Source: Naegleria gruberi
Taxonomy: Eukaryota
Assembly: GCA_000004985.1 (NCBI GenBank)
Contig: GG738867.1
DNA length: 64,000 nucleotides
Reading direction: 5' to 3' (one strand)
Under the pieces are notes generated by a model. That model saw only the letters and a program-made list of their open reading frames with translations, ran no database searches and was not told where the DNA came from. The position numbers and the translations under genes were made by a program. This document shows positions 1,907 through 56,086 of this stretch, in pieces (positions within the stretch are counted from its first letter, which is position 1; each line of letters begins with the position of its first letter).

Positions 1907-4620
1907 TTATTTTAACATGTTTTCAGATTCCTCAGTAAGATACTTGCCAATAATGGATTGAACAATAGTATTCTCGAGTGGGGTTGCTGAAAAACATCTC
2001 TCTGCACAACTGGCCATCACTTCTTGAACCAATGATGGAAGATAGGTCTTATCTTCAATCAGAGTGGCAAGTTTTTGTTGCATAAAAGCAATTTCAACTT
2101 GCAATTGTTGGAAACCATTCTTACCAAAAGTGAGACCTCTAACACATTCTTCCATGGTCTTTAAAACAATCTTGAGAACTTCAGTAACAATTTCATTACC
2201 ACTGAAACTGGAATCACCTGCTCGTTGGAAATATCTTGGTGTCTTGATGGAGAAACTTGAAAGTTTCTTGTTGAAAATTCTCATTACATCCTTCACAGCA
2301 TCAGAATTTTGACTATATTTGAGTGAAGAAGATGAATCCAAACCACCATATGAAAGACTTGACTCACCACCACTTCTTCCACTTCTGCCACTTCTACCAG
2401 AGTCACTCTTTTCTGTTTCAGTGTCATGAATTTGACTAGGTGGGAATAATTCAATCAAGTGAGACCTTATATTGAAAAGATCTGTAACTGTAACTCTGAT
2501 AAAGCTTCTCACGTCACGAGGAACATCGGTATCGAGCCAATTATGTGATTCCATGCTAGTTCTGATTAATTTGGAAACCGATCTGGCTTGAATTTCAATA
2601 TAATATACAATTAAGTGGGAAGTACATTCCTTGATACGAATTTCCATATTTTCAATATTGAAGAAGGTATCTTCATCTTCAAGTTCTGTCATACGACTTC
2701 TTGAGGATGTCTTTCTCACTGATTCGGATGATGAAAACTTTTCACGAAGCATGTGCTTGAAATCTCTCAATGGAAGTTTTGTACAAAGTTTGGTCAATAA
2801 GAGAGCTCCGACACATGTCACCTTACGGAATTTGTATTCTTCTGGTGTTAAAATAGAAACCTTGCTATGAGGAGTACCATAATCCTTACAGAATAACAAG
2901 AGAGAATCAATAAACTCGACACACATGGATCTAATCCAATTCTTGTAAAAGCTTTCTCTTGATGCCATAATGGATCCTAGTGGAGTTTGAGTATCCTCTT
3001 CATTGATAAAAACTCTATAATTATCCAATCCTGATTCCAAATCATTTTTCAAATTTTGAATAGCTCCATCAACTATGGAATATAATTGATTAGCTTTGGT
3101 ATTATCAGGTGTTTCGGCTAGCTTTTGAATATTGGTCTCAGTGTTAATCTTGACCAATTCCATTTGATTCATTAAGAATGTTCTCACAGTGTCACCAACT
3201 AAATTGTAAACCTTTTCTTGAAGCTTGTTGTTTGGAATTTCTACAATATGTGAAACGGATTCATTACAGAATAATCTGAGAGCTAACTTCAAGTCCTCGT
3301 TGGAACTCTTTGAATTGTGAAGTAAACTTCTAATGTGTTCAAAATATCCAATGAATAATTGTTTGGTCCATTCACTGAAATCTTTGGTAAGTTGTTCGTT
3401 GGTGATTTGTTTTCTAATTTTTGGATCATTGGTAAGGAAGGTCATTTGGTAGGTATAATAACATGATTGTACTCTTTTCAAAAATGATGCATTCAGTGAT
3501 TTCACTCTTTCACTGGTGTTTGCTGATTCTGTTTGTTTAATTACCCTTTCCATATCTGCCTTTAAAAATTCTGATCTGACCTTCAGATAGGAATCTCTCA
3601 CTTGTTCAACTGGAACCTCCAAATCTATCAAAATGCCGACATAATCTTGAACCTTTGGATCATCATCATCGGCAATATTTAACAAATCCTTTTCAATATT
3701 GGTCTTCATCTTGTTGATAACATCAGTAGATTCCTTTTCAATGTTTTTAAATCCAGATAAATTAGCATTCTTTTTAAATATTCTACTAGCAATATTGTAA
3801 TACTTGACAGCAATATTATACTTTTTCATTTCTATACAGTCATTCAATCTTGTTGGTAATTCCAACAAGAATTGCATTTTCTTTAAAGTTCTGTTGACAC
3901 TGGAAAGTCTCTCAATCTTGTCTCTCTTGTTTTGAAGATTGGAGTTAATAGTTTCCGAACAAGTAGTAATTTTATCCATATTTTGTAAAAGTGATTTCAT
4001 TTCATCTTCCATTCCTTCCACGTGATGTTTCATCTTCTTGATAGTATCTGTTGCTGTGATAAACTTGTTGTAATTTTGATAGACAAGCATTTGAAGTGAT
4101 GTATCCAAATTCTTAGTTTCTTTTCTCAGTGCCGATTCTTGTTGCAATAAATCCTCCACTGATTTGTTCATCAGAGTCTTTTTTAAAAAGTCATCTGCAT
4201 TAAAGTGACTTCCATCTATTATTAATTTCATGATGATAATGATGATGATGAAGTATTGTTATTATAATAATATATTATAATTCATATTATTGTTGTGAAA
4301 AAGTACATTATATAAATTTCATATTAATCCAAATCAACAATAAAATTATAATTTAACACGAATTCACAAAATCAAAACCTACCAATATCTGTCGTATCAA
4401 AAACTTGACTATTATTTACAACAGGTCTTGAAGGTGTTCCTTCATCTCCTTGGTCTTCCTCATCAGCCATGGCACCATAAAATTGTGCCAACAACAATCG
4501 TGATCTCTCTCTTTCCTTGTCCTCGGTCAAGTCAGCCAATGGAGTAGAGGTAACAACCTCCTCCTCATTATTGTTGTTTTTCATCACAGATCGGGAGGGT
4601 GTTCTTGTTGGTGTACTCAT
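1907..4620 (-). CDS. VPS51: VPS51 (GARP/EARP complex subunit, Vps51/Vps67 family); 2 exons: 4620..4383 and 4215..1907
   Basis: Strong similarity to the Vps51 family: MLVYQNYNKFITATDTIKKMK vs human [36 protein letters not shown] vs KLQFLFELPSRLTKC, and C-terminal TFGKNGFQQLQVE vs TFGRFGLQQVQVD. Exon 1 is a separate upstream ORF (RERSRLLLAQFYG resembles the Vps51 N-terminal RRR..L.LYYG). GTAGGT donor at 4382 and TAG acceptor at 4216 (167-nt intron). The spliced junction reads TTDI-D-GSHFNADDF, matching human PTDLNGAHFDPEVY. Confidence 0.85.
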
Positions 4621-4904: not shown

Positions 4905-7900
4905 ATGAATGTCTTCAATGCCATGTTCCAGACGAGAAAGGCTCCATCGTCGGCCACTGGAACCACTCAAGCCATGCATGTATTTTACATGTTGTCAATG
5001 GAAAAGATTTTGAAGAATTTAGTGAAGAAACAAACCGATTTGAAGAATGCTTGCCAAGAAGTTATGGGTATGTTTTGTTAGGGAGACTTTTTAGTTAATC
5101 AATAATCATTATTGTCATTAATTAAATTAACCTTCATTCACAAATAACAATGGAATAATATATAGATGTTATTAAAAAGTTGGAAAAGAACGAAGCCGAC
5201 GTTCTTAGGGATATTTCTGAAAATCCAAATAGATACTTTAAACCTTTGGAATTAGCTTGTGCAACCAAAAAACCAACAATAGTAGAACCGGCATTGGATT
5301 GTCTTCATAAATTGATGGCTTATGGATATATTGATAGTAAAATACCATATGAAGGGAAAACTGATCTTTTAATTGATGTTGTTGTTGCTACAATTTCTAA
5401 TTGTTTTGATCCAACACAAGACGACAATGTTCAATTACAGATCATCAAGGCCCTTCTTACAGCAGTTACATCATGTGATATCCATGGAAGGAGCTTGAGA
5501 TTAACCGTAAAGACTTGTTTCAATATTCATCTAGTTTCAAAGAATGAAATTAATAGAAAGACAGCACAAGCAACTCTCAACCAAATGTTGAATATTATTT
5601 TCCAAAGAATGGAATCAAAACCACCAAAAGCTAAACAACAAGAAGCTAATCAAGAAAATGTTCAAGATGAGAGTGCTCTTGCACAACTTCAGGAGGAAAA
5701 ACCAACAGAGGATTATATTAATGAATTTGTTGATGGAATAATAGATGACGTTGCCCAACAAATTTTGGAACAACAACAATATGATCTTGAGAATGAGGAG
5801 GATGACGAACCTATGGATGTTATTGAAAGTGAAAATAATGGAGAGTCATCGGATAAAACAAATACACGTAAGAGATCGGTTTCAGATGCTGATCACGAAC
5901 CAAACGCTCCAATTTTTGACAACCAATACCAAAAAGATGCTTTCTTTATATTTAGAGCATTATGTAGATTAGCCATGAAGCAACTCCCTAAGAAGTATGT
6001 TTTTGTTATTACAATTTATTAATTTAAATTAACAATTTAAAAACCTAGTCCAACCCCAGACTCCTTGGAACTTAAAAGTCGTTTACTTTCTCTTGAATTA
6101 ATTCACAACGTTTTGGAAAACAGTGGACCAGTGTTTAGAACATCTGAGACTTTCATTTCGGATATCAAGCAATTTTTGTGTTTATCACTTTTGAGAAATT
6201 GTACAAGTCCAGTTCCACCAATCTTTTCTCTTTCATTGTCCATTTTTAAATCCCTTGTTAAATATTTCAAAGTTAATCTGAAAGGAGAAATTCGTTTGTT
6301 CCTGACAAACTTTTTGCGTATCTTACACAGTGAAAATAGTACATATCACCACAAGATGTTGGTAATTCAGGTTTTGAGTTTTATTGCTCAAGATTCACAA
6401 ACATTATTGGATATTTTCGTTAACTATGATTGTGCTTTGGACTCTTTGAATATTTACGAACAAATTGCTAGTGAATTGTCAAACGTTGTACAAAACTTAC
6501 AAGCTGAAGGAGAATGGATGACACCTACACAAGAACTTAAATTAAAGACAGCATCTTTGAATGCTTTGGTGTCTGTTTTGGAATCACTTGTAAAGTGGAT
6601 GAATGAAAAGCAAGGTGAATCATCAGAGGAACTTAATAATCAATCCGAAGAAATGACTGAAGGTGAATACTTTGAAAAGCAAAGAAACATGAAGATTGGT
6701 CTGAAAGAAGGTATCAAACTTTTCAATAGAAACCCAAAGAAAGGTATCAAGTACCTTGTTGAAATTGGAAAACTTCCAGATCCTGAAAAAGTCGACAAGA
6801 CTGAATATGCTACCTCTGTTGCTAAGCTTTTATATAATACTGAAGATTTTTCAAAGAAGTTGATGGGTGAATTTATGGGTGAACAAGTTAATAGTGATAT
6901 TCTCCATGCCTTTACTGAATTACAATCATTTGCTGGTCTTCCATTCGATAAGGCATTCAGAAATTATTTGAATACATTCAGACTTCCAGGTGAAGGCCAA
7001 CAAATTGACAGAGTTGTCCAAAAGTTTGCTGAAAAGTACTTTAAGGATAACGGAAAGTCACATGTTTTTGCCAATGCTGATGCTTGTTACGTTTTTGCTT
7101 ACTCTGTAATTATGTTGAATACCGAATTGCACAACCCTGCTTTCAACTTCCGTGAAAGAATGTCTCTTGAAGCTTTCATTGCTAACAATAAGGGTATCAA
7201 TGATGGTGGTGATATTGACCACAAGTACCAAGAGTCTATCTATGGAAGTATTAAGAATAATGAAATTAAATTGAAGGGAGATGAAATGGAACAAATTGTG
7301 CAACAATCCCAAGATAAAACTCAACTTACAGCTCAACAAAATCCAAGAAAGAAGCGTATGTTGTTCACTTTGGAAAGCGAAAAGCTCGAAAAGGAAACAA
7401 GAAACTTGTTGAAATCAAGTCAATCACAGAGTGATTCTGATGATCAATTCTTCAGTGCTAATCACATTACTCACGTAAGAAGTATGATGGAAACAACCTG
7501 GGAATTTTTCAAGGAAGGTCTCAAGGCTACTTTGGAAAAGGACAAGTTTGCTGATACTAAGGTCCATGACAATTGTCTCAGAGGTTTGGAATATGCTATT
7601 CACATTACTAGCCGTTTTGATATGCCAACTGAAAGATTGGCTTTTGTTCAAACATTGTGTCACTTTACCAAATTGACCATTTCTGAAAAGGAATATGAAG
7701 CTCAAAATGATCCAAATCATATCCACCAAAATCCAGATACTCTCAAGAACAGATATATTATGCAAGATAGACACATCAAGGCTATCAAGATACTTCTCAA
7801 GATTGCCGAATTAGAAGGTAATTATCTTAAGGACAGTTGGGCCAATATTTTGGAATGTCTTTCTCAATTAGAAAGATTGCAATCTGATGTCCCACAAAAT

Positions 7901-9955
7901 CGTAACAAATCCAAGAGTGCTGCTAGATTAACTATTGAATTGACCCCAGAACAAATCAATTCTAATACCATCTTGAATAATAATATTGACCATCTTGTTA
8001 TTGATAAGATCTTTGTCAAGTCTGGTGAATTGAGTGATGATGCTATTGAAAGCTTTGTTAAGGGCTTGTGTGGCGTTTCTAATGATGAAATTAATCCAAA
8101 AGCTAATAGAATGACATGTACTGGTAACATTAATATTAATCCAGTACCAAGAACTTTCAGTTTGCAAAAGCTTATTGAAGTTGCTCACTATAATATTAAC
8201 AGAATCAAAATTGTTTGGTCCAAGTTGTGGGTTCACATGGGTAAACATTTCATCACTGTTGGTACACATGATGATTTGACTATTGCAATGAATGCTATTG
8301 ACTCTTTGAGACAACTTTCAATGAAATTCTTGGAACAAGACGAATTGGCTAACTATCACTTCCAACGTGACTTCCTCAAGCCATTCTTCCAAATTATTCA
8401 ACAAAGCAACAAGACTGAAATTAGATTACTCACTGTTGAATGTGTTGGTCAAATGATTTTGGGTAGATATAACAATATCAAGTCTGGTTGGAAGACAATT
8501 CTCCAAATCTTTGCTCAAGCAGCTTTGTGTGGATCACCAGTCACTGACGAGGGTTTTAGATATGTCACTGCAATGATGAAGGATGGTGGTGATGTTGATT
8601 ATTTCCATCAAATTCAACAAAACGAATCCTTTGTTGATTGTATCTTGTGTTTGACTGCTTTTGCTCGTAACTTGGCTAATACCAATATTTCCAAAAGTTC
8701 TATTGCACTTTTAAAGCTCTGTGCTCTTCATATTGTTAATAATAGAGTTGATGCTATCAAGAATGTTGACATTTACACTGATGAAGAAGTTCACTTCAAG
8801 TTGTGGTTCCCTATCTTGACTGGTCTCTCGCGATTGGTTAGTGACGATAGAAGAGAAGAAGTTAGAGCTAATGCTTTGAAGACTCTCTTTGAAGAAGTTC
8901 TCATTAACAGAAAGATTGGTGACAGATTCTCTCCAAAGCTTTGGAATTTCGTTTTCACTGGAGTTCTTTTCCCAATATTTGACGAAATCAAGCAAGCCAA
9001 TATCACTGATGAAAGCTGGATCAATACTACTTGTAGAAAATCCTTGAGCTTGATGGTCACATTATTTGCTCAATACTTTACATCCATTCCACAATTATTC
9101 GACAATATTCTCACCTTGATTAGTTCTCATTGTTTCTTTAGAGTTGAAGAGGATCAAGTCAATCAAAATACTGACTCTCCTTTGGTTGTTGAAAAGAAGA
9201 TTAAGAATGAAAAGCTTGCTGAAATTGGTAACGAGTCATTCAAGATTTTTGTTCAATTATGTGGTAAATTATTCAATGACCAACAATGGGATGCTGTTTG
9301 CAGAAGTTTGGAAAGTATTCTCACCATCAACCTTAAACTTAAGTCACCAATCGATAGCAGAATCCGTTTGAAGATTATTGAAACAACTAACGATATTCTC
9401 ACTACTCAATTCGATAACATGAAACTTGTTCACATTGAAAGTATGCTTGATTCATTGTTGAATTGTCATAACACCTCATTGGAATTCAACTCCAAGCAAA
9501 AGGGTAATGCTGAAAATGATTACGAGATTGAAATTGAAATGTTCTCCTGTACTGTTTATGTTAATATCTGTTCCAAGTTGTGCTCATCACCAAAAACAAC
9601 CGAAGAACTCTCTAAACGTCAAGAAGTTGGAGAAAATAGAATTATTGAGATTACCGAAAGAACTTTCATCAGATATTTACAACATATTGGTATTTTACAA
9701 TATTCTGGTAGTAATGCTGATTTAGATATTCAACAAGATACTGTCTTGTGTGGTAATAGATTAATGTCATCATTGGTTCCAACAGTTGTTTCTCTCCTCG
9801 AAGTTTACCTTTCATTCCCTGAAGAACAATTCCTCAAATACTTACCTAAATTCTACCCTCTTTTCACTAAATTATTGCTGACGCAACACAGAGAAATCAG
9901 ATTAGTTCTCCTTGACTTGTTCACTAGATTTGGTAAACAAGTTCTTTTGAAATAA
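4905..9955 (+). CDS. Brefeldin-A-inhibited (BIG/Sec7-family) ARF guanine-nucleotide exchange factor; 3 exons: 4905..5067, 5166..5994, 6049..9955
   Basis: Canonical Sec7 domain in the long ORF (FNRNPKKGIKYLVE...FRLPGEGQQIDRVVQKFAEKY...NTELHNP). DCB/HUS-like N-terminal regions align with BIG1 (DAFFIFRALCRLAMK.. / PDSLELKSRLLSLELIHNVLENSGPVFRTSE vs human DAFLVFRSLCKLSMK.. / PDPKSHELRSKILSLQLL..AGPIFRTNE). GTATGT donors at 5068 and 5995 with TAG acceptors give in-frame joins. About 1630 aa in total. Confidence 0.85.
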
Positions 9956-14596: not shown

Positions 14597-14677
14597 CGCG
14601 GTCTACAGGATTCGAACCTGTGCGGGTCGCCCCAATTGATTTCTAGTCAATCACCTTAACCACTCGGTCAAGACCGC
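14597..14677 (-). tRNA. tRNA-Ser (anticodon AGA)
   Basis: Reverse complement GCGGTCTTGACCGAGTGGTTAAGGTGATTGACTAGAAATCAATTGGGGCGACCCGCACAGGTTCGAATCCTGTAGACCGCG folds as a type-II tRNA. Acceptor GCGGTCT/AGACCGC, D-arm GCCGAGTGGTTAAGGC, anticodon stem ATTGA/TCAAT with loop CTAGAAA (AGA), long variable arm, T-loop GGTTCGAATCC. Near-identical to eukaryotic tRNA-Ser-AGA. Confidence 0.85.
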
Positions 14678-18012: not shown

Positions 18013-18269
18013 TTTTAAAAGGTGGTGTGTGAAATTCATTATTTGGACCATTGAATTATTGAACCAATTTGTAAAGTGGAGAAATAATGGAAAGTCAATT
18101 GCATTTATGTCAGTAAATAGAGGCAATGGTGCAACATTGCAAATCTGACTAATGATCCTTCCGGATGAAAATTTAAAGTATCTTCCAAATAATAATTCAA
18201 CAATTGTAATCAAGTAAAAAACACTGGACGAATTTGTGAATTTATATTAAGCCAATAGATAAAATGAAG

Positions 18270-18340
18270 TGCATTAGCCGGGAGTCGAACCCGGGTCACC
18301 AGCTTGGAAGGCTGGTATGATACCGTTACACTACTAATGC
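18270..18340 (-). tRNA. tRNA-Gly (anticodon TCC)
   Basis: Reverse complement GCATTAGTAGTGTAACGGTATCATACCAGCCTTCCAAGCTGGTGACCCGGGTTCGACTCCCGGCTAATGCA. Acceptor GCATTAG/CTAATGC, anticodon stem CCAGC/GCTGG with loop CTTCCAA (TCC), T-arm CCCGGGTTCGACTCCCGG. Closely matches eukaryotic tRNA-Gly-TCC. Confidence 0.85.
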
Positions 18341-21472: not shown

Positions 21473-21553
21473 CGCAGACTGCAGGATTCGAACCTACGAA
21501 GGTTTCCCCAACAGATTTCAAGTCTGTCGCCTTAACCACTCGGCCAAGAATGA
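21473..21553 (-). tRNA. tRNA-Ser (TGA)-like sequence with defective acceptor stem (possible tRNA pseudogene)
   Basis: Reverse complement ..TCATTCTTGGCCGAGTGGTTAAGGCGACAGACTTGAAATCTGTTGGGGAAACCTTCGTAGGTTCGAATCCTGCAGTCTGCG has intact D-arm, anticodon arm (loop CTTGAAA = TGA), variable hairpin and T-arm typical of tRNA-Ser. The 5' acceptor strand TCATTCT pairs at only 4 of 7 positions with the 3' strand AGTCTGC. Confidence 0.45.
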
Positions 21554-29029: not shown

Positions 29030-31204
29030 TTATTTCTCTGATTCAAGGAAGGAATTGATGATATCAGTAAACTGAGAAGGAAATTCTCGTCTCTTTGCAA
29101 GTAATTCCAATGTTTCAGGTATTATTTTCTCATGCAATAAATCTAGACTTGGTCCATTAGAAGATTTCACTGTAAAGCACAATTTGGCATTGTATCCTTT
29201 TTCATTAATACATTGTCCAAACAATTGTCGTAATTGGTAGAAATACGTATAATCACAATCCATAAAAGTCATTGAAACTCTGTCAATAATAAATATGGTT
29301 TGCAATCTCTTTTCAGTTATTTCAATAATTTTGCTTTCTTTTCTAGTACCATCGATAGTGATTGAAACTTTGATTTTCTTTCCTGGTCTTTGTAACAATT
29401 CAATAAGTGACTTATTAGACATTTCTTCATAATCTTTGATAAATATTGAGCAAGCACCGAACCAATTCTTAATGGCCTCTTGTTGTATTTCAGGATGTGA
29501 TGTAAGGATATCCATATTAATCCATCTTATAGCCTTTGGTGCATATTTTACAATCTCTAAAGCATAATCCTTATTGCTAGATATAAACTTTGACACTTTT
29601 TGGAGACTTGTAAAAGGATCTTTTTTAAGAATTGCGATAATAATGTCCATTGAGTGTATGTACTCTTTAGGAATTGTGCTAATATTGTCTCCTCCTTTGA
29701 TGGAAGCAAGAACCATTTCTTTATCAATCTCAATACTACTATCAATTTCTGAAATGCTGAAACCTCTCCTCAAACAGTCTAAAATCAGCTCTCTATCGAT
29801 TCCAATGATATCCTTATATTCCTTTTTAAAAAGATACTTGAGAATGGATGGATTGACTCTTAGAGCCTCTTTAAGGAATTCCTTATCATGTCTCAATGAC
29901 TCATCCAATATCTTGAATAATTTTCTTTCCTGACGGCAATATTTCAACAGCCCTCTATTCTTCAAGAATTCACTGTCAACTTTGAGAGAAATATTCTTGG
30001 ATATGAATTCAGTGTCTATGGTAGTACTAACTTCTATTAACTTGCAGAATAAGTCGAAACTATTGAAAAAGCGATCATCCAAACATGCACAAATATCATC
30101 ACTTTCTACATCATGGCACAGGTACGATATGTCATAATCACGGGTTGTGCACGCCTTTACAATTTCCCAAGGCACAAATCCTATTTTTCCCTCAGCTTCT
30201 CCTTGATCCCAAGGGTAATCTGTATACTTTGAATTGGAAACCTTCGCTTTTTTTAATCCAATAATGTCAATGAGATTGCATGCTACTAAATATTCATCAT
30301 CAAATCCCAAATATCCCACCATTTGTTGTAATTGCAACACTAAAATTCCCTTATCACCTGGAACAAGGGAAACCCAATAATCACTTCTATAATTACAATT
30401 TTCAAAACTTGGATATGATAAACCTCCATAAAAAGAGCATAACAATTCCTTCTCCTTCCTTTGGAAACGGATAATATTTCCATTATTAGAAACTAGGAGA
30501 AATCTATTTGAGGATGTTGTGATTTTACACAGCTTCATATTGTCCATCTCAATAAACTCTACACAATTTGATATCTTTTCTCTGGTAATTTGAATTTCCT
30601 TTACCTCCTCATCTTGTTCATCTTTATCATCTTGGTCATTTTCTTCATCCTCTCCTTCATCTTCTTGATCATCTTCTTCATCTTCCTCTTCCTCTTCATC
30701 TTCTTCTTCTTCATCGTCATGTTCCTCTTCGTTTTGCTCTGTTTCATCATCTCCATCATTTTCATCTTTCCCTTGCTCATCTGTGACCATCATTGCATTC
30801 ACTTCCTCATCCATTTTCAATACCTTCAACAATCTTAACCAATATGCCAATGAATGATATTCATTCTCTGGATTACACTCTACAGACCAAGTCCATGTCA
30901 ATTTTCCTGAACAAATCTTGTTATTCCATAGAGTATCAACCCACTCCTTCAGCAAAAGTATGATCTTCTCACGGGAAAAGTACAAATCGTGCCAATCTTT
31001 ACACACCACAGCAAGTGATGGCAAATCCTTTGGTGAACAAAACTTGAATATATGACCCAATACAAATGGATCATATCGACAAACGAGAATATTTAGAGGT
31101 TTCTCCAATAATTGATTGGATTTTTGCTTTTTTGATGATGACAACGAGAGAGAGTTATCTTCCGAAGAGGTTCGCTTCATTTGGTGTTGGGAATTAGTAG
31201 ACAA
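29030..31204 (-). CDS. F-box-like / poly-acidic / SH3-like / DUF4116-repeat protein
   Basis: 724-aa ATG ORF. N-terminal F-box-like motif (LNILVCRYDPFVLGHIFKFCSPKDLPSLAVVCKDWHDLY). About 70-residue D/E run. SH3-like segment (...GDKGILVLQLQQ...GKIGFVPWEIVKA). C-terminal tandem approx 30-aa repeats of DUF4116 type (DKEFLKEALRVNPSILKYL / DKEMVLASIKGGDNISTIP / DYALEIVKYAPKAIRWI). Confidence 0.6.
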   Translation of the reverse strand: MSTNSQHQMKRTSSEDNSLSLSSSKKQKSNQLLEKPLNILVCRYDPFVLGHIFKFCSPKDLPSLAVVCKDWHDLYFSREKIILLLKEWVDTLWNNKICSGKLTWTWSVECNPENEYHSLAYWLRLLKVLKMDEEVNAMMVTDEQGKDENDGDDETEQNEEEHDDEEEEDEEEEEDEEDDQEDEGEDEENDQDDKDEQDEEVKEIQITREKISNCVEFIEMDNMKLCKITTSSNRFLLVSNNGNIIRFQRKEKELLCSFYGGLSYPSFENCNYRSDYWVSLVPGDKGILVLQLQQMVGYLGFDDEYLVACNLIDIIGLKKAKVSNSKYTDYPWDQGEAEGKIGFVPWEIVKACTTRDYDISYLCHDVESDDICACLDDRFFNSFDLFCKLIEVSTTIDTEFISKNISLKVDSEFLKNRGLLKYCRQERKLFKILDESLRHDKEFLKEALRVNPSILKYLFKKEYKDIIGIDRELILDCLRRGFSISEIDSSIEIDKEMVLASIKGGDNISTIPKEYIHSMDIIIAILKKDPFTSLQKVSKFISSNKDYALEIVKYAPKAIRWINMDILTSHPEIQQEAIKNWFGACSIFIKDYEEMSNKSLIELLQRPGKKIKVSITIDGTRKESKIIEITEKRLQTIFIIDRVSMTFMDCDYTYFYQLRQLFGQCINEKGYNAKLCFTVKSSNGPSLDLLHEKIIPETLELLAKRREFPSQFTDIINSFLESEK

Positions 31205-46601: not shown

Positions 46602-49600
46602 TTATAAAATTTCCTTTCTTTGAGCATTGGGTGGTTCTCTAATTCTGGCAATTTTGATGAATTGCTCGACAGTCATGGTGCTTCCATAGAGTGCAGAGGC
46701 TTCTCGTTGTTGCTTTTGGATCATCATTTGGATTTGGAAAACTGGTTGGATGGCAAAGTCAACTCGACACTTTTCCAATCTGTTCATGGCTGTGGCAAGT
46801 TCTTCAAATTTGGCCCATCGAATCATGTTATTGTGATGTTTCACATAGGTTTCAGTTGAGTAAAAGTAGCTCAATTCTTCCTGTTGTAAAAAATCCATAA
46901 AATGATTCTGAATATACATGAGCTCTCTCAAGTGAGCTTCAACAATTGGAAGACAAGGAGTTCTGCATCCATCAAATAGGTCATTATAATTCTGATATCG
47001 AGAATCTTCAACAACTACTACATCGATATGATAATTGGATGGATCAAATCCGAAAAAGATGTCATATTTGGATTTGAAATGAATGAGGGATGGAGTTGGC
47101 ATGTGAGAGAAGGAAGAATCTTTTGATTTGGCAGTATGGTGATCCTCATAAAAGACTACGAGTGGATTAGTTTCCACTTCTTCAGCTTCATTGTCATCCT
47201 CTGAGGCAATTTGTTGCTGTTTGATTGAGTTGTTGACACTTGTTGGAATTACTCTGACAGTGCTTATTGATTCCTTTCTTCTGACAATATTTGGAGATGG
47301 AAGGGAACTTTCTACATTGACAGAAGTGGAACTATTGATAGAGAATGAGTCGAATGAGCCTGATTTTCTCATTTCTTGAACAATGGTATGGCTGTGTTTT
47401 GGGTGACCGAGATTTCTCACAATACTCTTGAAACTAAAGTTGGCATTTCCTTTGAATTTCTTTTTGGATTCATCGACAGTATGGTAGAGATTTTCCTTAA
47501 TGGCTGGATGTGAAAAGATGGTAGCAAGTGCATGGGCAGCACCATAGTTTTGCATATTGTACAATTCAATAATGATTTGCTTAATCTTGATGATCAATTC
47601 AACACGATCCTTGATGTGTGGTTTATCCAAGACATCACACATAAGCCAATTAGCTCTATCGTGGATCAACTCGAGATATTGACACAATTTAGGACAATTC
47701 ATCTTGAAATATTGAGATCTAAAATTGGAAATGGCCATATTGAAATCCAAGTAGCCATACGTCTTTTTACAATTCTTTACAGAGAGAATGGAATAATTCA
47801 AAAATTCAACACTCGAAATTTCACTATAAAAGTAATAATCCATAATAGTGAATTGTCTAGATAATTCTACAGGTGACACATCTGACCATTTGAGAGAGGA
47901 TGAAAAGACATTTGGAGGAATGTTTGGTCTTGGACATTTTGACGAGTCCATGTAAATGGTTTTGTAAAAGTGATAATATTCGTCAGTGTTGGTATTATCA
48001 TCATCAAGATTTTCATCGGTATCAATTGAAGTTTCCAAGGCATTCCTCTTTCCTCTTCTATTGTTGCCATTAGTGAAGATTACATCAGAATCTGATTCAG
48101 ATAAATGGGACGAGAAGAAATTAGACAACTTATCAGAGAATGACTCTGTGTCGGTCTTTTCAATTTCCAGCGAAGTGAATTGGGTATATTCCTTAATGCT
48201 GACCTTCTTTCTCAGATTCTTCTTACCTAAAATTGTTGCCATTTTCTTTTTCAATGTTGTATTGATAGTTTCACATAATTCGAGTGCATTTCCAACTTTT
48301 GATAGAGTCACAACCGAGTCTGGAATCTTGCTTGACTCAACCTTTTTCAATAAGTGTAGGGATTTTATCTGTTCGATAATCTTTGAGAGAAATTCGAACA
48401 TGTTTTGATTCCATTGATAGTAATATTCCGATAGCCAATAGCTCAACACATCGAGACAACAAATAATAATTTCAATACACTCTACAGTTTCCAAAAGTTT
48501 TGACATTGTGTTGGTAATTCTATCAACGTGTTCACCGACTGATTCTTCAAGAATATTATCATTAGTGACATCAGTAGAGGAAAAGACTCCCTTACTATCT
48601 AATCCGAAATTTTTCATGATCAAGATGAGTGGAAGACTCAACCTTTCGAATATTTTCAATAGGAGACCATCTGGAGACAGAATGTGAACATATCCCCTGA
48701 AGAATGCCTTTCTAAAAGTGTCCTTTGTTTCGATTCTTGTCTCAGGACGTACACAATTCTCTCCAAATACTTCGAAATAATCATTAGCAACAGTATCGTA
48801 TTCTCTGAAACGAATCTTACTCATAGTATCGAATAGTCTGTGCTCAGTGACTGTAACCATTTCAATGAGTTTGTTCAAAGTCAATCCAAATAAGACGTTG
48901 TGATTCTTATCGTCGTCTTTGAATGTATAAAAATTGGAGAATGAGTCAAATAATTCATGATGTTCTCCAGTGCTTTGATTCTTCCTCTCTATGAATAGTT
49001 TTCGTTGTTTGATATCATTTGAGGTCAGAGTTTCGAATGCAATCTTGGGAATGTTTGAGAACTCCTCCCAATAGGAAGGTTTCAGAGAGAGCTTGTTAGA
49101 TTGAGAACGAAGGAGGAATTTTTGGAAGAAATTTTGAGTTACTGTTTTCGAAGGAATGAAAGTGTTTCTTCTGATGGTACTTTCTCTCACTCTCGATTTG
49201 GCAGGCGAGAGAGGAGAATTTTTGCTCGATAAAGTGCTAGCTCTTCCATGAATGGAACGAAGCTTTTCCAATGTTTCGGCAGCTGTTGGTCTTCCAATAG
49301 GATTAGGATCCAATAATTTACAAATCAATTCGGCCAATTCAGTTCCATTAGTTACACATTCCATAACTTGTTGTCTGAGTTGGGCATGGAAATTCACATT
49401 CTGATACACCTCAATGTAAAATTGTCTATTCAAGACTTGGAACAAGAGTTCATAAAATACACAACCAAGAGACCACATATCTGTCGAATATCCATATGGT
49501 TCCTGGGACATCATTTCTGGTGAGCAATATTTAACAGTACCCAGAAGAGTTTGTTCAGAGCTAAAGCTTTGTGGAACAAGAAGCTGGTCAGTGTGAATAC

Positions 49601-50426
49601 TGCCATTATTCCTATTGAAAAAATTACCTCTTTCCTTTTCCAATTCTACTGCTTCTTCACTGGTGGAGAATTTCATCTTTTTCATAGTTTCAAAATCTCC
49701 AATCTTGATCGACTTTTCATCATTGGTAACAAAAATGTTACTCGGCTTTAAATCCAAATGTACAAATCCCTCGGAATGCAAATACTTGACACCCTCTGCA
49801 ATTTGAATCATGTAACTCAATAATTGATCTCTCGAAATGACTTCAAATATTGAATTGACATGACAATTATTCGTACTTTCGTATTGTTTAGTTTTCTTCT
49901 TCAAATAGGTATCCAAATCACCATGTTTAAAGTATTCCATTTGAAAGCAAATCCAATAACTTTGTTTCTTATCAACAAGCTGACTCAAATTCTCAACTTG
50001 CATCTTGATAGATGATGATGAATCGGAAGAAATTGAACCTGCTTCAGCAATTTCATTCTCATCCTCATCGTCATCTTCACTTCCAACAAGTAATTTGGAT
50101 TTTTCACTAGCTTCATTCTTTGTATTGGCAACAAACTGATTACCATTCACATTCCCAGTACCAGTACCAACACTATTTCCTCCTCCACCTCCTCCCAAAT
50201 TAGAATTACTATTCGAATTATTTGTATTCATAATATTTGCAAACTTTTCAAAAAAGATATCTTCAATTTCTACAAGATTTGGCGACTTTAAATGTCTCAA
50301 TTTCCATCCCTCAGATATAAATCTGTTCAACTCATCCTCCGAGTAGCATTGTGTCTTTTTGAGAACTTTTGTAATGTGCTCTCGGGTGACAATGACGAGA
50401 ACCATTTGTTGATTATTCTTCATCAT
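46602..50426 (-). CDS. Protein kinase - RasGEF (CDC25-homology) fusion protein; the 5' end possibly extends upstream
   Basis: 1274-aa ORF. Kinase C-lobe motifs YLHSEGFVHLDLKPSNIF, IGDFETMK, GTVKYCSPE and DMWSLGCVFYELL. Gly/Asn-rich insert. RasGEF N-terminal-like region and a CDC25 catalytic domain (..NMQNYGAAHALATIFSHPAIKENLYHTVDE.. / ..PCLPIVEAHLRELMYIQNHFMDF). The reading frame stays open for about 70 codons upstream of the first Met without another ATG. Confidence 0.65.
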   Translation of the reverse strand: MMKNNQQMVLVIVTREHITKVLKKTQCYSEDELNRFISEGWKLRHLKSPNLVEIEDIFFEKFANIMNTNNSNSNSNLGGGGGGNSVGTGTGNVNGNQFVANTKNEASEKSKLLVGSEDDDEDENEIAEAGSISSDSSSSIKMQVENLSQLVDKKQSYWICFQMEYFKHGDLDTYLKKKTKQYESTNNCHVNSIFEVISRDQLLSYMIQIAEGVKYLHSEGFVHLDLKPSNIFVTNDEKSIKIGDFETMKKMKFSTSEEAVELEKERGNFFNRNNGSIHTDQLLVPQSFSSEQTLLGTVKYCSPEMMSQEPYGYSTDMWSLGCVFYELLFQVLNRQFYIEVYQNVNFHAQLRQQVMECVTNGTELAELICKLLDPNPIGRPTAAETLEKLRSIHGRASTLSSKNSPLSPAKSRVRESTIRRNTFIPSKTVTQNFFQKFLLRSQSNKLSLKPSYWEEFSNIPKIAFETLTSNDIKQRKLFIERKNQSTGEHHELFDSFSNFYTFKDDDKNHNVLFGLTLNKLIEMVTVTEHRLFDTMSKIRFREYDTVANDYFEVFGENCVRPETRIETKDTFRKAFFRGYVHILSPDGLLLKIFERLSLPLILIMKNFGLDSKGVFSSTDVTNDNILEESVGEHVDRITNTMSKLLETVECIEIIICCLDVLSYWLSEYYYQWNQNMFEFLSKIIEQIKSLHLLKKVESSKIPDSVVTLSKVGNALELCETINTTLKKKMATILGKKNLRKKVSIKEYTQFTSLEIEKTDTESFSDKLSNFFSSHLSESDSDVIFTNGNNRRGKRNALETSIDTDENLDDDNTNTDEYYHFYKTIYMDSSKCPRPNIPPNVFSSSLKWSDVSPVELSRQFTIMDYYFYSEISSVEFLNYSILSVKNCKKTYGYLDFNMAISNFRSQYFKMNCPKLCQYLELIHDRANWLMCDVLDKPHIKDRVELIIKIKQIIIELYNMQNYGAAHALATIFSHPAIKENLYHTVDESKKKFKGNANFSFKSIVRNLGHPKHSHTIVQEMRKSGSFDSFSINSSTSVNVESSLPSPNIVRRKESISTVRVIPTSVNNSIKQQQIASEDDNEAEEVETNPLVVFYEDHHTAKSKDSSFSHMPTPSLIHFKSKYDIFFGFDPSNYHIDVVVVEDSRYQNYNDLFDGCRTPCLPIVEAHLRELMYIQNHFMDFLQQEELSYFYSTETYVKHHNNMIRWAKFEELATAMNRLEKCRVDFAIQPVFQIQMMIQKQQREASALYGSTMTVEQFIKIARIREPPNAQRKEIL

Positions 50427-50922: not shown

Positions 50923-52216
50923 ATGTCCTTATTTTCCAACTCATTATTCACGCCTCCTACAGTTGCTAATAGTGATGATTGTAAAGATTGCACAGAGGAG
51001 GGATTTACCAGTCCTATGAGTTATGTGTGTTCCGATTGTTCCTCCAATTTGTGTTGTTATCACGGACAAAAACATATGAAGGAAAATTCTGATCATTCTG
51101 TTGTAGCTAAATCAGCTTACAGTAGTAATAGTAGTAGTAATAGTGGAAATGTAACAACAAGTGGTAGCAATTTGTTTGGATTTATGAGTTCTTCTTCTTC
51201 TTCTGGTATTTTCGGATCAACAAGTAATAGTGCTAATAGTATTTTCGGATCAACAAGTGGAACAACAAGTGGTGGTGGTTTGTTTGGTAATAGTAGCAGT
51301 ACTAATAATTCTGGATCGATATTTAGTGGTGCTTTTTCAACTTCATCCCCGATTGTTGAGCTTACTCCAGAGGAAATTATGAAGAAAAATCTTGAAGCTG
51401 TTGAAATGTTTGAGAATAGTAGGGATTCTGCATTATCACTCTTTATTGCAATGCATAACCATGTTCCTGTTAACAATAGTTGTAAATTGATTTTGGTTGT
51501 AAGTGAAATATTTTCTAATTTTTTCATCTATTTGAAATATTGTTAGGGAGATAGCTGTGGAAAATCATCCTTTGTTAAAAGATTAATCTCAAATGAATTC
51601 CATGGGCCATACATTCCAACCCTTGGTGTCTCTGTTCATGCAAAGGTAAGCTCTCTTGATTAATATTAATTCAAATTGACTTTATTGAAGAAATTTGAAA
51701 CAACCCATGGTGATATCACTTTCAACATTTGGGATTGTGCAGGTCAAGAAAAGTTTGGAGGCAAGTTGACTTTATTAAGCAATTCTAATATTATTTTATA
51801 ACATTTTAGGATTGAGAGAAGGTTATTATATCAATGGTAATTGTGCCATCATTATGTTTGATTGTGTAAATTCTTTGAAAAGTGTTAATAATTGGCTTAG
51901 AGATGTTGTAAGAATTTGTGAAGGCATTCCAATTGTATTGTGTCTCAATAAGGCTGATCTCTTATCAGAGGAAGCAAGACAAAGACTCAAATTTGAAATA
52001 GCAGGTTTTCGTGGTCGTATTCTCAACTATTTCGAGTTGTCAAATAAGGATTCATTGAATTTGGAAGATCCACTCGAATATTTGGCCAAAGCACTGCTCA
52101 AAAACAAACATGTTTCATTCTTTTCCAAGGTAAGAAAGCAACAAGAAAATGTATTCCATCAAAAGCTTCAAAACACTTCCATGACAGCAGATGCCAACAT
52201 CAAGACAATTGAGTAA
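50923..52216 (+). CDS. Divergent Ran-like small GTPase with N-terminal Cys-rich zinc-ribbon-like motif and FG repeats; exons 50923..51498, 51547..51645, 51691..51760, 51810..52216
   Basis: Ran homology runs across 3 introns: KLILVGDSCGKSSFVKRLISNEF (Ran [24 protein letters not shown]), [31 protein letters not shown] (Ran [31 protein letters not shown]), and VLCLNKADL (NKxD). Intron 1 is GTAAGT...TAG and intron 2 is GTAAGC...AAG. Intron 3 can only be drawn as GCAAGT...TAG (51761..51809), which exactly restores GG-L-REGYYI. The N-terminal 190 aa have CKDC...CSDC...CCYHGQKH followed by GIFGSTSN / SIFGSTSG / GLFGNSS / LFGFMSS FG-type repeats. Confidence 0.7.
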
Positions 52217-52394: not shown

Positions 52395-55300
52395 ATGTCA
52401 TCATCACACTCATTCACTCTAATCTTTCTAACTATTGCTGTTATATTGCTAACTTTAAATGGGCACTATTCGATATTTGCCTTTGATCTTACTTTTCCAA
52501 CATTTCCTGATGCCAAGTTTCGATCGGATACTTCCAATGCCACTGAAGTGTTTATTAAAGACTCAATTGACCAAATTGCTAAACAACTCGAGCCACCATC
52601 TTTAGCTCTTCCATATTATATTGATGGACCAATAGCACTATTCGCAGAAGTGGTTGGAGTTCTCTCAAATAGTGACACGTACAGTAAACCTTACGTAAAA
52701 CCACCAGATGTTATTTCGAATAGTACACACGAAATGTTGAACATAATGATGACCAAAGTATTGAACCGAGTAGAAACTGCCCTGTTAGAAACCAAATATG
52801 ATAAGCTTGTTATTGCTCTCGTTATTGAACTCGATAAGGATCTTGAAGTTGCTGATTGTAACATTTCGCCAATCATTCCAATAGAAATATCAAAAAAACT
52901 TGCTGACATTACTGTCTATTTGACAATTAATGGTCATTCCTTGAATATGAAATGTGGTGGAGATTATTTATTCTCTAGTGGTCCAGATTCCAATTGGAAC
53001 ATTGTTATTAACAGAGCAGTACTTTCGAATATATATTTTACTGGAAATTATGTTTTCAAAAAGGTTGAATTTTTGGCTCAATGTGAAATATCAGCTTCTA
53101 GTTTTTTAGTATTCATCAAATCCAAGACTCTTCACACACTATATATTCCCTACATTAGTGCTATTAAGGAATTGATATTTATTGATAGTGTTATGGATAA
53201 ATTAAGAGTGGATTTCATTCAAGAGTTTCATCTATTTTTGGCAAGTAATAGTTTGATTGGTTTAGGAATGTTCGATTGTGAAATTAAGAATGTTTGGCTG
53301 TATAATTCAAAGGTTTATCTAGAAGACAGGTTTATTATTGAAAGTTCTGATCAATTCATATTATTTAACTCAACTATTCAATCAAAGAACTCTCCAATAC
53401 AGATGAGAATAGAATATTCGAAACTTATTTTCATAGATGGCTTTAAAAATTCTCATACTCCAATCATGCTCTCACTTTCACATTCCATTTCTGTTGTAAT
53501 GAAAAACATATTACTCAATTCTGCCACTTTACAACAAGAATCACTTCTTAATTTTCGAGGAATCAAATCATTATCCATCTATTCCTCCATATTTAAAGAA
53601 AACAATGCAAATAGAATTATAGACATTAGTGATTCAAGTGAGGTTGACATTAAAGAGATTTTATTTGAGGAGAATTCTGCTACTGATAGTCCAATTTGCA
53701 TTTCTCCTGGTGGAGCTAAGAGCTCACATACCCGTATTGTGGACAGTGTTTTTAATAGGAATAAGGCGGGAAATAAGGCAGTGATTGCATTGTCTCATCC
53801 AATTATATTGGCCCGATCTGTTTTTAATGAAAATGAGGGAGTTAGTGGAGGTTTGTATATTTTGATTTAAATTGGTGGTTGACCATGTTTAGGAGCTATT
53901 TATGTTGAAGCTGGATTTACTATTTCTGGGTCCACTTTCAAGAAGAACAAGGCCAAGAATGGAGGAGCTCTGTATATTCACTCAGAAATTGGTGCTTCAG
54001 GTACCATGCAAAATGTTGATTTTGTGGAAAATCAAGTAACAGATCTAGATGATGTTAAAGTGTGTGGTCAAGATAGTTGTGATGGAAGTGGAGGTGCTAT
54101 TTATTATAACCAAAACGACCTTTTCTCAATAATGTCATGCAATTTTGTCAAGAATTTGGCTGTCAGAGGAGGTGCCATCTTTGCAAATTTTGAAAATGAT
54201 ACCATTTTTATTACTTATTCGAAATTCAAAGAAAATTATGCAAGTTATGGAGGAGGTGCAATCTATTCTAATTCTGCCTCATATCTTCCATTAATTTATG
54301 AAGAATTGGGAAGTGGAAATAAGGCTAAAGTATTTGGAGATTATGTTGCTTCTTCCATTGCTAGTGTGAATTGGAGAGTTCAAATTGAGGATCAAAAAGA
54401 TAGATTATATGAAGGAAATCAAACTATTTCAGTATATCCAGGTCAATTATTTACCATTATTCCCTATTTTACTGACCTTTACAATAATTCTTTTGTAATG
54501 AATAAGGAAGTTTCAAAAATCAAAGTTTCAGGATCAAATTTCACAATTAGTCAATCATCAGAAAAGGAATTTACTAATCTATTCATTGCATCAACCGGTC
54601 CACTTCCAAATTCTGAACATTTACACATGACAACACTTACCATTTCATTTTACAAAACCGAAACCAATCTAAAAGTCCAACTTCTCCCCTGTCCAAAGAA
54701 TTTCTATTTGAAAGATAATCAATTTAGTAAGAATCTTGTCTGTGTCTATGAAGAATCCAGAGAATATCTGATTGCTGTAGCTGTTTCAGTAACCATTGTG
54801 GTCATTACCCTTCTCCTATGCTCAATAGGTGTCATTTCCATGCTCTGCTACAAGATATCCCACAAGGTAAAGTATTGGATGCGTAGAGATAAGGCAGAAA
54901 AGGAAATTGAAAAGCGATTACTCGAATCTGATCTATGTCCAGAAGAGGAATTGCTCAGTGTTCGAAATTTGAATTTTGTGATTAGTATTGATCAGATTAC
55001 ATTGGAAAGAAAGATTGGAGAAGGTGGTTCTGGAATTGTTTATTTGGGAAAATGGCATCACCATCCAGTTGCTGTCAAATGTCTTAAACTTCAAGATGCT
55101 TATCAAAATTCAGATGAAATTGAAAAGGAAGCAGCTCTATTATGCAAACTTAGACATCCCAATATTGTATTATTCTTTGGTGTTTCATTAACTCCACAGA
55201 AACAATATCTCATTGTGGAATATTTGGAGAAGGGAAGTTTGGAGAAACATATTTCATTAATGAAACGAAACCATCAATTCGAATTTGTTGACAAGTTGAA

Positions 55301-56086
55301 GCTTTTGATTGATATCACATGTGGAATGGCATATCTTCATTCCCTTAAAGTTATTCATAGGTATGTGAAATATTTAAACTATTTATTCCTAATATTCGAA
55401 ACAGAGATTTGAAACCTGGAAATATTCTATTAGATTCTGTTGGAGTAGCCAAAGTTTGTGATTTTGGCATTTCTAGAATTGCTGGAAACACTGCAGCAAA
55501 CTCCACAACCATCTGTGCTGGAACTTTAACCTACATGGCTCCTGAACTATTGCAATCAGATGCCGAAAAGAATCGAATTACAACCTCAGTCGATGTTTAC
55601 AGTTTCTCAATTATCATGTATGAAATATTCTTTGAGGAAGCTCCCTATGCAAAATCTTTGAAAATCAAACAATTTAAACAGGAAAGAAATGGAAAAATTC
55701 ATAATTCTCATTCAGAAGATGGTTTTTATAATAATCATCATCTTGTAACTCCATTTTCAGTTATTTCCAAAGTGATTAAGGGAGTGAGACCTGAAATTCC
55801 ATTCGAAAATCCACAAGATATTGCTGAATGGCTTCAATTATACATGTTTGAATATGGATTACTTTCCGATATTTGTAAATCAAAGGCAATTTCTATTGTA
55901 AATGATTATGTGGAATTGATGAAAGCTTGTTGGAGTGCAGAGCCAGATCAGAGACCAAACTTTGAAACTGTTCTCAATTGTCTTTCATTGTTGAGACAGC
56001 AATTTATGGACTTGACAGATTATCATAAACAGATATCTGGTTCTCTATCCTCTACATCAACAACTACTACAACTGCCTATGACTAA
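52395..56086 (+). CDS. Receptor-like TKL-family protein kinase with large GGAIY-repeat (Pmp-like / parallel beta-helix) ectodomain; exons 52395..53850, 53893..55360, 55405..56086
   Basis: Signal peptide (LIFLTIAVILLTLNG). Approx 800-aa ectodomain containing recurrent GGA[IL]Y/GGGAIY units (GGAIYYNQND, GGAIFANFEN, GGGAIYSNSA, GGALYIHSE). Single TM (LIAVAVSVTIVVITLLLCSIGVISMLCY). The cytoplasmic kinase has IGEGGSGIVYLG, AVK, HRDLKPGNILL and DFG. GTTTGT donor at 53851 with TAG acceptor at 53892, and GTATGT donor at 55361 with CAG acceptor at 55404. Confidence 0.7.

Follow-up and report, generated by a model that had tools for sequence, protein, structure and literature searches.

The DNA considered here is a 64,000-nt stretch of Naegleria gruberi contig GG738867.1 (GenBank assembly GCA_000004985.1), referred to below as the window. 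On its forward strand, at 50923-52216, lies a gene of four exons whose predicted product of 383 amino acids (aa) joins a putative zinc module, a stretch of phenylalanine-glycine (FG) motifs and a helical linker to a GTPase (G) domain of the Ran type. An earlier note on this DNA had described a Ran-like GTPase fused to a zinc-ribbon-like motif and nucleoporin-type FG repeats, and had placed its limits exactly; the ATG is at 50923 and the TAA at 52214-52216. The gene and its product divide as follows.

50923-51498, forward strand: exon 1, residues 1-192, one open frame holding the start, the zinc module, the FG stretch, the helical linker and strand beta-1 (CKLILV) of the G domain
50980-51096, forward strand: zinc module within exon 1, residues 20-58, eight ligands in the pattern C-x2-C-x12-C-x2-C-x4-C-x2-H-x3-H-x6-H
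51109-51351, forward strand: FG stretch within exon 1, residues 63-143, 81 aa, 70% Ser/Thr/Gly/Asn with one charged residue
51352-51480, forward strand: linker within exon 1, residues 144-186, with helices at 149-164 and 167-179 predicted by AlphaFold2 (AF2) at low confidence (predicted local distance difference test, pLDDT, 50-61)
51499-51546, forward strand: intron 1, 48 nt, GTAAGT...TAG, 7 nt upstream of the intron position in two related environmental contigs, L001 and L002
51547-51645, forward strand: exon 2, residues 193-225, with the shortened P-loop GDSCGKS (51547-51567) and switch I YIPTLGV
51646-51690, forward strand: intron 2, 45 nt, GTAAGC...AAG
51691-51760, forward strand: exon 3, residues 226-249, first half of switch II
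51761-51809, forward strand: intron 3, 49 nt, non-canonical GC-AG, GCAAGT...TTTTAG
51810-52216, forward strand: exon 4, residues 249-383 and TAA, with the rest of switch II, NKAD, SNK, FRGR and a non-acidic extension ending ...ADANIKTIE

Gene model and Ran-family G domain

The zinc and FG part and the Ran part are not separate genes, because exon 1 already holds strand beta-1 of the G domain after the linker. The fusion within one gene that the earlier note had claimed is therefore upheld: a single exon spans the zinc module, the FG stretch and beta-1, and the same layout recurs in L001 and L002. Before splicing, the first open reading frame (ORF) from 50923 runs for 207 codons in a program-made ORF list. 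At intron 3 the frame stays open with either of two splice combinations. The contiguous Ran switch II hallmark, including GGLREGYYI, is restored only with the acceptor at 51809/51810, and for this reason intron 3 is assigned as GC-AG; the other open option adds ten unrelated residues and disrupts GGLREGYYI. The QEKFGGLR(D/E)GYYI block that had been reported for this locus is thus present, split by intron 3 and contiguous only once spliced. Gene finders restricted to GT-AG introns would break the gene within this most conserved Ran motif. The window as a whole is AT-rich (33.8% GC), and the introns are very short; with short introns and one GC-AG intron, such a gene is easily missed or split by annotation pipelines. 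No second Ran-like sequence and no second copy of the zinc and FG part were found in the window.

The predicted G domain clearly belongs to the Ran family. In a phmmer search of all PDB chains, residues 187-355 matched Ran/Gsp1 with E=4.5e-48 to 1e-45, followed by Rab35 and Rab23 with values around 1e-19 to 1e-20; the Ran-like character earlier ascribed to the C-terminal part is thereby confirmed (4.5e-48 to Ran against about 1e-20 to the best Rab). The Pfam Ras family matched at 9e-32. A search of 5.8 billion proteins returned Ran proteins at 43-54% identity with no near-identical entry, and all of the 120 best database matches (120/120) were Ran proteins. The signature elements compare with human Ran as follows.

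Switch I: KKYVATLGV in human Ran, GPYIPTLGV in the window protein; Y39 and T42 kept
Switch II: near-identical to human Ran; Q69, K71, F72 and R76 kept, with T66C and D77E as conservative changes
G4: NKVD in human Ran, NKAD in the window protein
G5: SAK in human Ran, SNK in the window protein and SSK in L002
Basic patch: HRKK in human Ran, FRGR in the window protein
Tail: DEDDDL in human Ran, none in the window protein, which ends ...TADANIKTIE

The missing acidic tail had been noted before and is borne out, since no alternative 3′ exon or splice that would yield DEDDDL was found; the last 30 aa carry a net charge of +2, where human Ran has -9. Another element of the earlier description, a KLxLVGDxxxGK context, does not hold. 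The actual sequence is KLILVGD-SC-GKSS, one residue shorter than the GDGGTGKT of Ran, so that GDSCGKS (G-x3-G-K-S) stands in place of the canonical G-x4-G-K-[ST]. This P-loop straddles the intron 1 junction, and no alternative donor or acceptor restores the lost residue. With a P-loop one residue short, the nucleotide cycle of the window copy may be altered or lost.

Set against canonical Ran/Gsp1, the window protein shares the fold family, a near-identical switch II, T42, Y39, Q69, F72, R76 and NKxD. It differs in its 186-aa N-terminal extension, in lacking the DEDDDL tail, in the replacement of HRKK by FRGR, in the short P-loop, in SNK for SAK and in two indels, with 2 residues missing after beta-4 and 3 extra ones after NKAD. 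Its G domain is about 45-52% identical to canonical Rans, which among themselves typically exceed 75% identity. Because it does not show two features that define Ran, a canonical P-loop and the acidic tail together with the basic patch, the predicted protein is a divergent Ran paralogue and not 'a Ran'.

Zinc module, FG stretch and relatives

The cluster C-x2-C-x12-C-x2-C described in the earlier note is present (C20, C23, C36 and C39). It is followed by four further ligands, C44, H47, H51 and H58, and all eight are invariant in an alignment of the three family members (the window protein, L001 and L002), as are the motifs FTS, Y, L-C and YHGQKH. All three members match the spacing of B-box type 1, expressed as C-x2-C-x7-12-C-x2-C-x4-C-x2-[CH]-x3-4-H-x4-9-H for a pair of zinc ions (literature consensus), and in the six-frame translation of the window this is the sole such match. 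The assignment to RanBP2/Nup153-type fingers that the cysteine spacing had prompted does not survive. That type (W-x-C-x(2,4)-C-x3-N-x6-C-x2-C, a PROSITE-style pattern) has four Cys in place of eight ligands, and no member fits it even when it is relaxed to C-x2-4-C-x10-C-x2-C, the central spacing being 12 rather than 10 and the Trp and Asn being absent; the profile Zn_ribbon_RanBP (PF00641) reached E=6 in one of the three members, the weakest of 12 marginal Pfam families, and did not match the full-length protein. The spacings of B-box 2 and HIT were also tried and did not fit.

Pfam gave zf-HIT at 0.016, Trim66 B-box at 0.02, zf-UBP at 0.064, ANCHR B-box at 0.1, AN1 at 0.11 and zf-B_box at 4, none of them significant; KAP1 B-box 1 appeared at E of about 1, and no match reached significance or a Pfam gathering score. 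Searches of the PDB with the zinc module, by phmmer and by profile, returned chance-level matches only (Rpb12, PRDM9 C2H2 linkers and KAP1 B-box 1). AF2 modelled the zinc module alone at pLDDT 50 and the exon-1 protein at pLDDT 43. The evidence suggests a putative two-zinc, cross-brace-type module with B-box-1-like spacing, a label chosen because the spacing fits while profile support is only suggestive and AF2 could not fold the module.

The FG stretch holds NLFG, GIFG, SIFG and GLFG at a spacing of 11-13 aa, together with one IFS. The five repeats listed in the earlier note are all there, the first four being true FG motifs and the fifth, the IFS, not. When the stretch was shuffled within its own composition, at least four FG occurred with P=0.011 and at least five [LI]F[GS] with P<1e-5. 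The window contains 69 stop-free segments of 100 aa or more, and in no other does the count exceed two FG per 60 aa (background 0.26 FG per 100 aa). Nucleoporin_FG (PF13634) is the sole non-GTPase Pfam family to match the protein, with a score of 27.0 bits (E=8.7e-06) where its gathering threshold is 32.2 bits; the N-terminal half alone scored 21.3 bits. AF2 gave residues ~60-148 no secondary structure and modelled them as disordered (pLDDT 31-41 in the FG stretch). No known nucleoporin anchoring domain was detected in the protein by Pfam search.

Relatives were sought by scanning 1.84 billion representative proteins exhaustively with HMMER, residues 1-186 serving as the query. This turned up one real relative, P0121 (E=1.1e-07), and a profile built from two sequences then added another, P0123 (profile matches 5e-76 and 3e-33); both are 174-aa prokaryote-style gene calls that end inside an intron. 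The environmental contigs that encode them, L001 (1444 nt) and L002 (2281 nt), both come from ENA assembly ERZ27315067. In each, one exon holds the zinc module, a polar stretch rich in F-[G/S/T], a linker and 'FKI[IL]LVGDG', and a GTAAGT...AG intron of 37 or 34 nt then leads into the Ran-like domain. The linker before the P-loop is of similar length to that of the window protein and aligns poorly with it. The L002 protein is complete at 359 aa and ends ...SSAFEGL, again without an acidic tail. Since both P-loops are canonical (GDGGVGKS in L001 and GDGAVGKT in L002), the P-loop deletion is private to the window copy. The window protein has four FG motifs and the relatives two or three; all keep 6-9 Phe per ~80 polar residues.

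Directly upstream of the L001 gene, at 1-435 of that contig, lies the 3′ end of a degenerate Ran-like gene (...ADAALVMFAI...CAMKVD...LEPLEWIIKALLSN...) that has lost NKxD, which implies that Ran-like genes have been tandemly duplicated and are decaying in that organism.

In a neighbor-joining (NJ) tree with 300 bootstraps, the three G domains and the first domain of P0001, a further Ran protein taken up below, form a clade at 99%, within which L001 and L002 group at 100%. The window G domain is 44-50% identical to those of L001 and L002, no closer than to canonical Rans (49-52%). The ratio of nonsynonymous to synonymous substitution rates (dN/dS) between L001 and L002, by the Nei-Gojobori method, was as follows.

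Zinc module: 0.16
Helical linker: 0.33
G domain: 0.29
FG stretch: 0.72, in a region where the alignment is unreliable

The zinc module is under strong constraint and the family under purifying selection. The value of ~0.72 for the FG stretch is close to neutral and fits evolution like that of FG nucleoporins and that of a plain linker equally, as judged from these two sequences. The 'nucleoporin-type' label of the earlier note receives weak backing: the motif cluster is non-random, and the profile score is below threshold, with 2-4 FG per member and a dN/dS of ~0.72.

Among JGI metagenome contigs scanned with zinc-module patterns, 128 pattern matches were obtained and none was confirmed as a member. 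Viral contigs gave no zinc-module match and no exon-4 match, which leaves a giant-virus origin unsupported.

Taken together, these sequences are a small, rare and apparently unannotated family of Ran paralogues that carry a zinc module and FG motifs. Its members share the eight-ligand zinc module, a disordered polar stretch rich in F-[G/S/T], a helical linker and a Ran-type G domain without the DEDDDL tail. We hold this description of the architecture and of the family with high confidence.

Proposed function and rival readings

Several properties of canonical Ran bear on what such a protein might do. Karyopherin-beta receptors, RCC1 and RanGAP make contact with its switch regions, and NTF2 with switch II, including F72 and R76. 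RanBP1-type domains grip Ran by its DEDDDL tail and basic patch, which also make up the C-terminal switch. Mutants of Ran that have lost the tail associate more easily with importins and do not respond to RanBP1. Karyopherins and carriers of the NTF2 fold are bound by FG motifs on their outer surface, and such motifs also partition into the FG phase of the pore.

With Y39, T42, Q69, K71, F72 and R76 kept, and the switch surface therefore nearly unchanged, the G domain probably engages some part of the Ran machinery. Having lost the DEDDDL tail and kept little of the HRKK patch, it would not be clasped by RanBP1-type domains and would have no C-terminal autoinhibitory switch. The FG motifs could serve, in cis, as a docking place for FG-binding transport factors or could draw the protein to the FG meshwork of the pore; the Ran-like domain would then be tethered to a receptor or to the pore, and the constrained zinc module would bind a lineage-specific partner. 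The net result would be a pore- or receptor-tethered Ran-like switch or adaptor rather than a freely cycling Ran. As an account of the whole, a Ran paralogue with a zinc module and FG motifs that acts as a tethered switch or adaptor uncoupled from RanBP1-type regulators is the best explanation we can offer, and we give it a probability of about 0.4. The tethering mechanism, taken as a claim of its own, we regard as somewhat unlikely. A bolder form, in which Ran has turned into a mobile FG protein that would enter the pore FG phase or clamp NTF2, Mex67-Mtr2 or karyopherins without RanBP1-type cofactors, is quite unlikely. If true, it would be a previously unseen wiring of a GTPase switch straight to the permeability barrier, and it may relate to the Ran-dependent mRNA export of trypanosomes (PMC11825100).

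A number of points weigh against the tethered-switch explanation and against the family grouping behind it. The P-loop deletion of the window copy (GDSCGKS) may abolish normal GTP binding. The Nucleoporin_FG score of 27.0 bits lies below the gathering score of 32.2, each family member has only 2-4 FG, and between L001 and L002 the FG stretch has a dN/dS of ~0.72 with a single FG strictly conserved. Neither AF2 (pLDDT 43-50) nor the profile searches, whose matches were all non-significant, gave a fold for the zinc module. The 99% NJ clade may be inflated by long-branch attraction, all of the branches being long. No orthologue was found among the annotated proteins of N. fowleri or Willaertia, the search covering annotated proteins only, so the gene is either patchy or absent there or else unannotated.

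The main rival holds that the gene is a drifting, lineage-specific Ran duplicate, effectively a pseudo-GTPase scaffold whose G domain does not cycle and whose FG stretch is a low-complexity linker with no role at the pore; we consider it possible, though doubtful. The one-residue P-loop deletion speaks for it, as do SNK for SAK and the two indels (2 residues lost after beta-4, 3 gained after NKAD), yet the canonical P-loops of L001 and L002 speak against it, and a long-standing loss of nucleotide binding should have eroded switch II, T42, Y39 and NKxD, all of which are kept. Drift would also suit a G domain that is only 44-52% identical to canonical Rans and to its own family, dN/dS values of 0.29 for the G domain and 0.72 for the FG stretch, and the degenerate neighbour of the L001 gene with CAMKVD for NKxD; on the other side, the ORF is intact over four exons whose splice sites exactly restore the most conserved Ran motif, and the zinc module is constrained at 0.16. 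As to the linker interpretation of the FG stretch, the varying number of FG motifs (2-4) and the sub-threshold Nucleoporin_FG score agree with it, whereas the [LI]FG pattern is far above compositional expectation and every member keeps its 6-9 Phe in ~80 polar residues.

That the gene model itself is an artefact, with the zinc and FG ORF and the Ran-like exons belonging to separate genes or the locus being a pseudogene, is extremely unlikely. The donor of intron 3 is the rare GC, and retention of intron 1 would stop the ORF after 207 aa; but beta-1 lies in the exon-1 ORF, no ATG between the linker and the P-loop could give a complete G domain, each of the three introns is short, has ends close to consensus and preserves the frame, the identical arrangement is found in L001 and L002, and the family is under purifying selection. 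A further alternative accepts a working Ran-derived GTPase and places it outside bulk transport, at a flagellar or basal-body gate during the amoeba-to-flagellate switch or in closed mitosis, where the FG motifs would add to a selective barrier or condensate. The host is Naegleria, which builds basal bodies de novo, Ran and importins are implicated in ciliary entry and spindle assembly, and the missing RanBP1-binding tail fits a specialised role outside the main cycle. We nevertheless judge this very unlikely: there is no ciliary or mitotic domain in the protein and no such gene beside it, the neighbours being a kinase-RasGEF and a receptor-like kinase, and the sequence does not separate a flagellar or mitotic role from one at the nuclear pore.

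If the FG motifs are functional, the gene is a natural experiment in tethering a Ran switch to receptors or to the pore, and could inform how Discoba rewire the Ran system; if they are not, it still illustrates cleanly a pseudo-GTPase scaffold derived from Ran, as well as a family of zinc fingers left unassigned by every profile library. The architecture would surprise specialists in nuclear transport; the FG evidence is thin, and the P-loop of the window copy is damaged.

Both flanking genes are uninformative on the role of the Ran-like gene. Upstream and divergent from it, with ~500 bp between the start codons, is a kinase-RasGEF ORF. Downstream, three consecutive ORFs are likely one intron-split receptor-like kinase, whose N-terminal part has a signal- or transmembrane-like start and Chlam_PMP repeats and whose kinase domain is spread over the ORFs at 54006-55412 and 55409-56086. 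These genes and the other features observed in the window are the following.

1907-4231, reverse strand: Sec5/Vps51-like subunit of exocyst or GARP, adjoining the ArfGEF gene
6065-9955, forward strand: BIG/Sec7-type ArfGEF, 83% identical to an N. fowleri protein and 73% to one of Willaertia magna, with no match reaching 90%, which puts the window in the genus Naegleria
14597-14677: tRNA Ser-AGA, called by Rfam and ARAGORN alike
18269-18340: tRNA Gly-UCC, called by Rfam and ARAGORN alike
21473-21553, reverse strand: tRNA call by Rfam (44.4 bits, 81 nt), absent from the ARAGORN output, possibly intron-containing
29030-31204, reverse strand: 724-aa ORF with DUF4116 repeats (3.6e-16)
46602-50426, reverse strand: 1274-aa ORF with a protein kinase domain (5.5e-33) and RasGEF (2.4e-15)
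52395-56086, forward strand: the three ORFs of the receptor-like kinase

Comparison with known systems

Ran is reported to be extremely conserved and, in nearly every case, present as a single copy (PMC6177115). In trypanosomes, likewise members of the Discoba, mRNA is exported by a rewired system that depends on Ran (PMC11825100). By analogy with the trypanosome case, an innovation of the Ran system specific to Discoba lineages is plausible; that case is not evidence for the window gene. Literature searches found no description of a fusion of Ran with FG repeats or with a zinc finger, of Ran paralogues in Naegleria, or of the layouts of P0058 and P0001 described next, in agreement with the remark of the earlier note that the architecture was not one known to it from model organisms.

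Two predicted proteins on transcript-like JGI contigs show that Ran and FG-like repeats in cis arose elsewhere too. P0058 (L004, 3-1214) consists of a Ran with an acidic tail, four SSLFGNSS repeats and a second Ran, and its precomputed Pfam annotation lists Nucleoporin_FG. P0001 (L003, 3-1838) has an N/Q-rich leader with FSFG and FNFG, a Ran-like domain and then a Ran ending DDDDL. Both differ from the window protein in having no zinc module, with the FG motifs lying between two Rans or in the Q/N-rich leader. The G domains of P0058 do not cluster with the window family, whereas the first domain of P0001 does (99% by NJ).

Fast-evolving Ran paralogues are also known as the Ran-like retrogenes of Drosophila, of which P0071, P0098 and P0107 were among the matches. 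They resemble the window gene as lineage-specific, fast-evolving Ran duplicates and differ from it as single-domain proteins of ~215 aa without a zinc or FG extension. The TRIM/KAP1-like B-box type 1 shares the eight-ligand spacing of the zinc module; TRIM proteins, however, carry a RING and a coiled coil, and the window protein has neither. Compared with FG nucleoporins, the window protein has FG motifs in a disordered polar spacer of low charge, in composition like cohesive repeats of the GLFG/SLFG type, but falls short of the Pfam threshold.

Zinc fingers and FG repeats are normally carried by regulators and effectors of Ran, not by Ran itself. RanBP2/Nup358 and Nup153 likewise unite zinc binding, FG motifs and a connection with Ran in a single polypeptide. 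They bind Ran, however, whereas the window protein is itself of the Ran family, and their zinc modules are four-Cys ribbons whose pattern and profile the window protein does not match. They also carry many FG repeats and pore-anchoring domains, in contrast to the four or five motifs and no anchor of the window protein. The nearest functional analogy is with Nup50/Nup2 and RanBP3/Yrb2, small or soluble mobile FG proteins of the Ran system that likewise join a small number of FG motifs to a module of that system. In these proteins the module is a Ran-binding domain and not a G domain, and it needs the acidic tail of Ran that the window paralogue is missing; beyond FG composition they have no homology to the window protein.

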